Counted from the first letter of the stretch, positions 5,291-11,465 are shown. The stretch is DNA of 48,551 bases from a virus (IMGVR_UViG_2627853771_000003), one strand, 5' to 3'. The notes: generated by a model not told the origin, from the sequence alone. Translations and numbers: made by a program.

Positions 5291-5348
5291 AAAAAGGGCG
5301 GCAGAGCAGTCACGGAGTAAAACTGATACCGCCAAACGTCACCAGAAA
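5291..5348 (-). ncRNA. dicF: DicF-like small RNA (ftsZ-targeting sRNA of the dicB operon)
   Basis: Minus-strand sequence TTTCTGGTGACGTTTGGCGGTATCAGTTTTACTCCGTGACTGCTCTGCCGCCCTTTTT, with a GGCGG...CCGCC stem followed by a U-run; sits between the ydfC-like and dicB genes with no protein-coding capacity. Confidence 0.6.
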
Positions 5349-9530: not shown

Positions 9531-10556
9531 ATGGATACTTTTCATAATATTTTGCTTGAGCACATAGACAGCCTTTTAAAAGAGAGACTTGATTTATCTG
9601 GTGACGCTGATATCGAAAAAGAAATTAATAACCTAATTCCCAAAATAGCCATTGTCGTTAAAAAATCTCTTATTGGCTCGGCCAATGCAATGCTTAGAGA
9701 ACATCGTTCTCTTTGTGATGAATTTGTTGAGAGAAATATTTCAAGATGGGCAGAGGCTTTTGATTTGCTCGAAACACTTATAGTGATATGCACGGAGTCC
9801 GGTGAAGAGTTCAATCGTTCTTATAGACCACAAGCTGCCTCTGAAGAGGATGTGGTTTTTGATTTAGTCGTTCGGCATCACGCAAGAGCTTGCCACATCG
9901 CCAACGAAATTTTGTGTCTCTTAAAGAATGGATTTGCAGATGCTGCCCAAGCGAGATGGCGAGCACTTCATGAGGTAGCGGCCACAGCTATGTTTATAGC
10001 AAAGCATGGAAAAGAGTGTGCTGAGCGCTTTTACTACCATGAAGTGGTTGATTCATATACTGGAATGTTGGAACACAAAAAGTACGAGCACCGGTTAGAA
10101 GCAAAAGGTCCAACTATTGAAGAAATAGCTGAGTGTAAAGTTCAATTTGATCTATTAATAAAAAAATATGGCAAAAAATATGCAGATAATTATGGCTGGG
10201 CATCTTATATTTTCCCTAACCATAATAAAGTGGGGTTTGGAGCTATTGAGAAAGATGTTCAGTTAGAACACATGCGCCCTTATTATAAGTGGGCGAGTCA
10301 GAATGTACACACCGGTTCCAAGGCAATGAGAAATAGGCTTGGTCTCTGTGAAACTGGTGATGATATATTATTGGTCGGGCAAAGTGATTCAGGAATGGCT
10401 GAACCAGCCCATGCTACTGCTATTAGTTTGATGCAGATTACTGTGACACTTTTATTTTTAAAACCAACCATTGATCATGCCGTCATTTCAAAAATAATAC
10501 AGGATTATTCTGATGAGATTGGAAATGTATTTCTTAAAATTGATAAGGGTAATTAA
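9531..10556 (+). CDS. orphan protein of unknown function in an AT-rich island (candidate accessory/defence gene)
   Basis: 341 aa from the first ATG (the track ORF begins at a TTG at 9519). AT-rich coding sequence flanked by AT-rich non-coding DNA; no family recognised; contains RHHARACH (R-x6-H). Confidence 0.6.
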   Translation: MDTFHNILLEHIDSLLKERLDLSGDADIEKEINNLIPKIAIVVKKSLIGSANAMLREHRSLCDEFVERNISRWAEAFDLLETLIVICTESGEEFNRSYRPQAASEEDVVFDLVVRHHARACHIANEILCLLKNGFADAAQARWRALHEVAATAMFIAKHGKECAERFYYHEVVDSYTGMLEHKKYEHRLEAKGPTIEEIAECKVQFDLLIKKYGKKYADNYGWASYIFPNHNKVGFGAIEKDVQLEHMRPYYKWASQNVHTGSKAMRNRLGLCETGDDILLVGQSDSGMAEPAHATAISLMQITVTLLFLKPTIDHAVISKIIQDYSDEIGNVFLKIDKGN

Positions 10557-10842
10557 AAATTGGAAAAGTGATAGTATATTCTTGTTTTTTTTACTGGTAA
10601 TTAAATGTTTTTAAAGTTACTAGTTCACACCTATCGAACGTCCGGTCTTCGCCCAAAGCGGACTAGAAGGTTAGCTTGCGTCGGACTTGGCGTATTTAAA
10701 GAAGTGCTGGTGGTGACTGGTTGTTGTGTTCCATTTCTACAGAACAAAATCACAGAAACTATACCCAATAGTTATATTGAATCAATGATGAGACAGCCTC
10801 ATATTTATCAGGACTGGTGTACGTCCAATACAGGAGGTTGTC

Positions 10843-10932
10843 GTGCTGGTTCTCAAATGTGCGCTAGCTATTGCGGCTGTAATGGCAATTTATTGTCTTG
10901 CTGTTGTTCTTACGGATCGCCTTTCTGATTGA
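10843..10932 (+). CDS. candidate small hydrophobic peptide (29 aa), type I toxin-like
   Basis: GTG start 5 nt after AGGAGG; product MLVLKCALAIAAVMAIYCLAVVLTDRLSD (single TM helix plus charged tail). Not in the track (under 60 aa); overlaps the implausible 107-aa track ORF in another frame. Confidence 0.35.
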   Translation: MLVLKCALAIAAVMAIYCLAVVLTDRLSD

Positions 10933-11143
10933 TTTTATATTGGCGAGGTGACGGGAGTTAAGTAGAATTGCTGCGGGTGCTTGAGGCTATCTGCCTCAGG
11001 CATGAACACCAAAGGCAGATAGAGAAAAGCCCCAGTTAACATTACGCGTCCTGCAAGACGTTTAACATTAATCTGAGGCTCAATCTATGAACGGCAAATC
11101 TAGGTTAGCCTCTTGCGTGCCGAAAGGCAAGGAGAAGCAGGCT

Positions 11144-11299
11144 ATGAAGCAGCAAAAGGCGATGTTAATCGCCCTGATCGTCATCTGTTTAACCGTCATA
11201 GTGACGGCACTGGTAACGAGGAAAGACCTCTGCGAGGTACGAATCCGAACCGGCCAGACGGAGGTCGCTGTCTTCACAGCTTACGAACCTGAGGAGTAA
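11144..11299 (+). CDS. hokD: Hok/Gef-family type I toxin (HokD/RelF-like)
   Basis: 51-aa product MKQQKAMLIALIVICLTVIVTALVTRKDLCEVRIRTGQTEVAVFTAYEPEE; an in-frame upstream ATG at 11087 gives a mok-like extension; terminator follows. Confidence 0.85.
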   Translation: MKQQKAMLIALIVICLTVIVTALVTRKDLCEVRIRTGQTEVAVFTAYEPEE

Positions 11300-11366
11300 G
11301 AGACCAGGCGGGGGAGAATCCCTCGCCACCTCTGATGTGTCAGGCATCCTCAACGCACCCGCACTT

Positions 11367-11393
11367 AACCCGCTTCGGCGGGTTTTGTTTTTT
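11367..11393 (+). terminator. rho-independent terminator after hok
   Basis: CCCGC-TTCG-GCGGG hairpin followed by TTTTGTTTTTT. Confidence 0.6.
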
Positions 11394-11465
11394 CCTGACA
11401 TTCTGGTTTACAATTCGCACGCCAGCCTGAACAACTGGCACCTGCTGCGCCAGCAGAGACAACCG

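Follow-up and report, generated by a model that had tools for sequence, protein, structure and literature searches.

The region examined here is most plausibly a single mobile cassette of a lambdoid prophage, in which a complete hok/mok/sok locus is accompanied by a separate protein-coding gene of 29 codons whose product would be a tolerated small membrane protein, a reading to which we assign a probability of roughly 0.6. The cassette lies within a virus sequence of 48,551 nucleotides (IMGVR_UViG_2627853771_000003; this whole stretch is referred to as the window), which belongs to the Qin-like lambdoid prophages of E. coli. Judged from its sequence, the hok part is a complete and ordinary type I toxin-antitoxin locus, comprising a promoter, a fold-back mRNA, a mok-position open reading frame, Hok, a Sok gene and a terminator, and as such represents already-known biology. 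The 29-codon open reading frame (ORF) appears, on present evidence, to be a credible, uncharacterised, widespread but taxonomically narrow small-protein gene and not a categorically new system.

Coding signal and product of the 29-codon ORF

The 29-codon ORF occupies positions 10843-10932 of the plus strand, begins with GTG and is predicted to encode a membrane peptide with a single helix, MLVLKCALAIAAVMAIYCLAVVLTDRLSD. Its Shine-Dalgarno sequence, AGGAGG at 10832-10837 (plus strand), is located 5 nt 5' of the GTG and is present as AGGAGG, AGGAGA or GGGAGG in all copies. The combination AGGAGG-N5-(A/G/T)TG occurs five times in the 48.5-kb window against an expectation of 1.0, and three of the four other occurrences start ORFs of 232-675 codons. 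A preliminary description of this DNA had drawn attention to the ORF and to its AGGAGG-N5-GTG start about 210 bp upstream of hok; both are as described, the measured gap is 211 nt, and the conservation and coding-type substitutions set out below indicate more than a chance ORF.

Copies of the ORF were drawn from E. coli chromosomes, isolated phages (Tritos, Evi, mEp460_ev081 and HannyBb) and IMG/VR prophage contigs, with further copies from E. albertii, E. ruysiae and Shigella virulence plasmids. The full-length copies examined number 101, comprising 97 that fall into 19 DNA haplotypes and four that were selected on DNA (L100-L103). Exactly 29 codons, together with the start, the Shine-Dalgarno sequence and the stop, are found in 101 of 101, and all 97 haplotyped copies have a GTG start (ATG on the virulence plasmid pINV) and a TGA stop. 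Most loci were gathered via the peptide, which biases the set toward intact copies; the ORF is also intact in all ten of the copies selected purely on DNA similarity. The only defective copies seen, L098 and L099, are both truncations caused by rearrangement.

Nine of the haplotypes specify the same peptide and differ from one another by synonymous changes only (CTA/CTG/CTC, GCG/GCA/GCT, TGT/TGC and GAT/GAC). Parsimony on a neighbour-joining tree yielded 28 synonymous versus 21-22 non-synonymous changes where the expected synonymous fraction is 0.27 (binomial p=1.1e-5); the family is young and narrow, so this selection test rests on 87 nt and ~50 events, counted without a transition/transversion model. 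Nucleotide changes are distributed 15/7/30 over the codon positions, none of them involving a stop codon, and the other five reading frames all score below that of the ORF. Amino acid replacements are conservative (A/V/T/I, D/E, R/H and M/V), and no indels occur in the ORF as opposed to indels of 1, 2 and 14 nt in the adjacent non-coding block. This pattern amounts to a clear signature of purifying selection, and the ORF is very likely a real protein-coding gene.

Other ORFs over the same DNA were considered and rejected. A minus-strand ORF annotated in one phage record is open in 15 of the 19 haplotypes, is interrupted by a TAG in the window and is most variable at its first codon position. 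A 107-aa plus-strand ORF (10605-10928) and a 45-aa minus-strand ORF (10631-10768) were discarded because the indels there are not multiples of three.

The consensus peptide of the family is MLVLKCALAIAAVMAIYCLAVVLMDRLSD. Residues 6-24 of the peptide constitute one strongly hydrophobic stretch (mean Kyte-Doolittle 2.6), after which follows a DRLSD tail, and the GRAVY of the 29-aa peptide is 1.7, within the small and hydrophobic range (< ~60 aa) of type I toxins. Its charges are Lys5 on the N-terminal side of the helix and D/R/D on the C-terminal side, an arrangement which, under the positive-inside rule, suggests that this is probably a single-pass inner-membrane peptide with its N-terminus in and its acidic C-terminus out. 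The size range and the one hydrophobic helix are shared with the toxins TisB, ZorO, ShoB, Ibs and Ldr and equally with the non-toxic KdpF, MgtS and AcrZ, but there is no detectable sequence relationship between the peptide and any of these. No match was obtained in Pfam, NCBIfam, PHROGs or PADLOC, and a HMMER search with a 30-aa version against 1.84 billion representative proteins returned only relatives of at least 83% identity, so that no distant family exists at this sensitivity. Homology to Hok was rejected because no Pfam model, the Hok/Gef model included, matched the peptide at E<=1.

The ORF is absent from RefSeq annotation. Some older GenBank records, including those of REL606 and BL21(DE3), label the peptide 'membrane protein' or 'hypothetical protein', and Prokka calls the ORF on pWR100 of Shigella M90T. 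A literature search covering work on hokW, hokD, small proteins and icsP, as well as substrings of the peptide, produced no mention of it. As a specific candidate for addition to the growing list of small membrane proteins in bacteria, the ORF was found in no family library searched and reaches from the laboratory B strains REL606 and BL21(DE3) to isolated temperate phages and the Shigella virulence plasmid, where it lies upstream of icsP.

The hok/mok/sok locus and its relatives

The hok toxin coding sequence (11144-11299, plus strand) encodes 51 aa and matches Pfam PF01848 (HOK_GEF) over all 42 profile positions (82.9 bits, cut-off 22; E=1.2e-23), as well as PHROG 251 ('MokW-like host killing', E=2.8e-33) and the RefSeq protein 'HokD' (WP_000813254.1). 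In the hok frame, a 70-codon ORF extends from an ATG at 11087 to 11299 on the plus strand; it holds the mok position and is labelled MokW-like in some phage records. The intrinsic terminator of hok, identified by a terminator scan, comprises a hairpin at 11367-11384 and a T-run extending to 11394 (plus strand). An intact Hok/Gef toxin, an in-frame upstream extension and a dedicated terminator had all been proposed in the preliminary description, and each of these assignments stands.

A promoter scan located a sigma-70-type hok promoter, TTGGCG-17 nt-TAGAAT, at 10940-10968 (plus strand), 7 nt 5' of the Rfam-defined 5' end of the hok mRNA. The full-length mRNA, as delimited by Rfam RF01794 and by the minimum free energy (MFE) fold, would be 420 nt long (10975-11394, plus strand). 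The covariance-model search suggested earlier as a check matched RF01794 to 10975-11149 on the plus strand with 109.6 bits (gathering score 59; E=3.9e-24), and the folding motifs of a hok mRNA are present: the MFE fold of 10975-11394 has z=-7.46 relative to shuffles, and in it the tac element (10975-10986, the first 12 nt) pairs with the 3' fold-back element fbi (11348-11360). Such tac/fbi closure is typical of hok mRNAs. Although RF01794 carries the name 'sok antitoxin', it aligns here with the hok-sense strand, from the 5' end of the hok mRNA at GGGUGCUUGAGG, and on the antisense strand it reaches a score of only 18 bits, at another place; the family match therefore marks the hok leader and not the orientation of Sok. 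With a permissive E-value, Rfam returned nothing credible between 10400 and 11800 besides the hok leader.

On the minus strand, a sok promoter TTGCCT-17 nt-TAACCT can be read at 11102-11130, which is where the promoter of a Sok overlying the start of mok should be found. The predicted Sok antisense RNA, ~70-75 nt at ~11022-11096 (minus strand), would begin with a single-stranded 5' tail, continue as a long hairpin and finish with a U-run, and the fold of 11028-11102 (minus strand) has an energy of -25.1 kcal/mol (z=-3.9). Its 5' tail spans 11079-11096 and so lies over the mok ATG at 11087. A sok-like RNA had been anticipated opposite 11080-11150; a sok gene is recognised, placed slightly to the left of that interval. 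Relative to the Rfam consensus, the Sok hairpin of the window carries an insertion of ~16 nt.

The hok/sok (parB) system of plasmid R1 is the prototype of type I toxin-antitoxin systems. The window locus resembles it in its fold-back-inhibited mRNA, its Sok-covered mok start and its Hok/Gef toxin, and differs in being located on a chromosomal prophage. Extrapolating from established hok/sok knowledge and from work on the close relative hokW-sokW, a stable hok mRNA would be held translationally inert through pairing of its 5' and 3' ends, Sok would cover the start of mok, on which translation of hok would depend, and the decay of Sok would allow Hok to enter and damage the inner membrane.

Among phage loci, hokW-sokW of Sakai prophage 5 (Sp5), an Stx2 phage, is alike in its lambdoid prophage position, in its 51-aa Hok and in a Sok of ~71 nt. 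HokW is toxic and is neutralised by sokW, a 71-nt RNA in Sp5, and after induction the locus aided the release of phage (PMC8621323). Primer sequences given in that study (PMC8621323) match the 5' leader of the window almost exactly. Phage hok loci, those of Stx phages included, show 89-98% DNA identity to the window, with 89-94% for the Stx-phage loci. The Stx-phage copies have sequence in common with the window only from ~10955 on, and hence are without the 29-codon ORF, while other prophage copies of O157:H7 retain only its last seven codons.

The closest comparison in K-12 is hokD (relF) of Qin, with 98.5% identity over 11130-11392 (the hok coding sequence and terminator) and the same downstream genes, ydfU and a Q-type antiterminator. 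In contrast to the window, K-12 hokD stands behind relBE, and its homology begins only at 11130, 14 nt before the hok ATG, which implies that K-12 has lost the hok promoter, tac, the mok start, the Sok target and sok; the window possesses all of these elements and no relBE. The lack of relBE, to which the preliminary description had pointed, is no oddity and represents the common, intact state of this prophage module. The full hok locus is also retained in thousands of other genomes. Two E. coli chromosomes match the 861 bases of 10560-11420 with 100% identity, and at least 80% of these bases occur in 1401 of 5426 complete genomes. Beyond showing that the well-known relBE-hokD of K-12 is the decayed version of a prophage locus common in intact form, the hok/sok part offers nothing new.

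Genomic setting of the cassette

Coverage of at least 80% of the region that contains the 29-codon ORF (10700-10960) was found in 1689 of the 5426 complete E. coli genomes (~31%), and the tandem arrangement of two small membrane peptides, which had been thought unusual, is thus a common one. The ORF family is confined to Escherichia and Shigella. Among the 89 loci whose downstream sequence is long enough, 86 have the hok ATG 211-212 nt after the ORF stop. An intact ORF without hok was encountered in three copies, namely L006, L012 and pINV. In the last of these, the ORF, the hok promoter and ~55 nt of the hok leader are located 300-380 bp upstream of icsP. The corresponding fragment of M90T pWR100 (L005, 2902-3187; record positions 90811-91096, minus strand) has an ATG start and 76% amino acid identity, and the same pINV copy is found on 136 Shigella/EIEC plasmids.

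Upstream of the ORF the sequence varies widely, with 32 unrelated contexts among 93 loci. Known defence genes occupy this slot elsewhere, including NsnB/NsnC in L004 (730-2813) and a dCTP deaminase in L008 (82-1720). The preliminary description had the upstream neighbour in the window as an orphan gene, which does not hold: it is an intact gene of the DUF5677 family (9531-10556), for which PADLOC gave no match and which its position makes a candidate defence gene. Variable upstream contexts combined with a constant ORF-hok arrangement indicate that the 29-codon ORF and hok form the fixed right flank of a cargo slot, which has the replication genes on one side and the nin/Q region on the other.

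A conserved non-coding block of ~140 nt (10635-10775, no strand assigned) usually accompanies the module and provides a shared left boundary, homology to the window starting at 10633-10650 in most loci and across many upstream contexts. Its non-coding nature follows from the indels of 1, 2 and 14 nt that it contains. RNAalifold applied to both strands of 10635-10775 and 10640-10812 gave weak energy, no consensus structure and no covariation, and the block is absent from the most divergent copies. The left edge of the block is sharp and coincides with a short hairpin, GTCCGN...GCGGAC.

Rearranged loci were also observed. In L098 (E. coli O157:H7 Z570, 1480-1670) only the last seven codons of the ORF are left, directly after queH, and the hok leader ends after ~100 nt at a cytosine methyltransferase/NgoMIV-type restriction cassette, rearrangements that point to the module as a frequent site of recombination. 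Elsewhere in the window, a perfect DicF small-RNA gene (5296-5347, minus strand; 76.7 bits) and a cspA-type thermoregulator leader (19920-20317, plus strand; 109 bits) are both consistent with a Qin-like element.

Expression and possible roles of the peptide

The 29-codon gene would be part of the rightward early operon, lying on its strand, and this position suggests transcription during lytic growth. It may also use a weak promoter of its own, for which the candidate is a sigma-70-like TTGAAT-17 nt-CATATT at 10777-10805 (plus strand) that matches 8 of 12 consensus positions and for that reason was not listed by the promoter scan. CATATT is invariant in 37 of 37 flank haplotypes, and TTGAA persists even next to an unrelated spacer; one clade (the L002/L030/L031 group) has lost the -35. 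In L103 (E. coli 2012C-4227, ~560-650), an IS3-family element is inserted just 5' of the -10 region of the ORF and has removed the proposed -35, and the ORF is intact. The start-site table from differential RNA sequencing (dRNA-seq) of Shigella M90T pWR100 contains no start at the position equivalent to the candidate promoter, nor one at the predicted hok promoter of the pINV fragment, and the nearest start on the same strand is 321 nt upstream. A search between 10932 and 10975 revealed no good terminator, so transcripts of the ORF would run on to the hok terminator.

Within the reading that we prefer, the 29-aa peptide is proposed to act as a membrane-level accessory factor of the phage. Its strong ribosome site is predicted to be open, with a probability of being unpaired of 0.57 for the Shine-Dalgarno sequence and start versus 0.26-0.28 for those of mok and hok. 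Together with the lack of an identifiable antisense gene, this argues for a tolerated small membrane protein and against a toxin silenced in the manner of Sok. Should the peptide affect the timing of phage lysis, exclusion or the control of Hok, this would be of interest to the phage and toxin-antitoxin field.

The preliminary description had credited the ORF with the architecture of a type I toxin, and the hydrophobic helix with its charged tail bears this out as far as architecture goes; toxin status does not follow from it, given the lack of a conserved antisense promoter, the ordinary mRNA fold and the open ribosome site. It is nevertheless conceivable, if unlikely, that the ORF is a second and new type I toxin, silenced by an unrecognised antisense or divergently encoded small RNA. 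A 29-aa product built of one hydrophobic helix followed by a short charged tail matches toxins of the TisB, ZorO, ShoB and Ldr type, it is encoded on a prophage beside another type I system, and an 8-nt repeat, GTGCTGGT, occurs both at 10696 and at the start codon. Weak promoter-like sites are present on the minus strand at 10961->10932 and 10785->10758, but the former has its -10 changed from TAAAAT to TGAAAT in about half of the haplotypes and is missing entirely where hok is missing, and the latter falls in the non-coding block that the most divergent copies lack and that has no consensus structure. The fold of the ORF mRNA is no better than that of shuffled sequences (z=-0.35), and thus is not the structured mRNA of a type I toxin; likewise, pairing of Sok with the ORF mRNA does not exceed that of shuffled sequences, so that Sok has no special complementarity to it. 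The pWR100 table holds no plus-strand, that is antisense, start between 90219 and 91397, and no Rfam family matches the ORF, although computational absence is not proof. Across promoter conservation, structure, Rfam and pWR100 dRNA-seq, no cognate antisense or divergent antitoxin RNA was found for the ORF. In view of these missing regulatory hallmarks we treat the ORF as a small membrane protein gene and not as a second type I toxin gene. As a counterpoint, a 29-mer that is hydrophobic and has a strong ribosome site could nevertheless prove toxic, provided that it normally goes untranscribed.

We consider it similarly improbable that the 29-aa peptide is the founding member of a novel membrane-peptide family of phages, restricted to Escherichia and Shigella, and that it works without an RNA antitoxin, either by being membrane-active itself or by modulating Hok at the protein level. 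If this were true, the ORF and hok/sok would make the cassette a two-peptide membrane module flanking a hotspot of prophage defence genes.

It is rather doubtful that the peptide cooperates with Hok in the membrane, whether by enhancing it, timing it or antagonising it at the protein level, so that the two form one functional unit. The fixed spacing between the ORF stop and the hok ATG agrees with such a partnership, as do the missing terminator between them and the prediction that both products are N-in single-pass proteins with a Cys in the helix. Against this, the ORF is missing from many hok loci, such as those of plasmids, other chromosomal ones and the functional hokW-sokW of Sp5, and the intact ORF persists in the three copies that have no hok.

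Very unlikely, finally, is an ORF that is not expressed as protein and serves at the level of DNA or RNA, as an UP-like part of the hok promoter, a read-through leader or a recombination boundary of the cargo slot; its last four codons and stop do abut the hok -35, are nearly invariant in nucleotides and survive in the O157 remnant, the module does flank a slot of many contexts and M90T does lack a start at the ORF promoter, but variation is clustered at third codon positions and, in this frame alone, is synonymous, the Shine-Dalgarno sequence, start and stop are retained in copies with just 77-80% DNA identity, the 87 nt are free of the indels seen in the neighbouring block, and copies without hok remain intact.

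The ORF allele of the window has ACG (Thr24) at 10912-10914 where nearly all others have ATG (Met24); Thr24 is common only to the window, L001 and L103, and the change makes a UACG motif. In hok, the codon for Tyr47 is UAC followed by G (11282-11285). A-to-I editing by TadA has been reported to recode Tyr to Cys in the hokC, hokD and hokE mRNAs, with the residue numbered 46 there (preprint 10.1101/2025.08.07.668861), and the Tyr47 site of the window would be the counterpart of that edited site.
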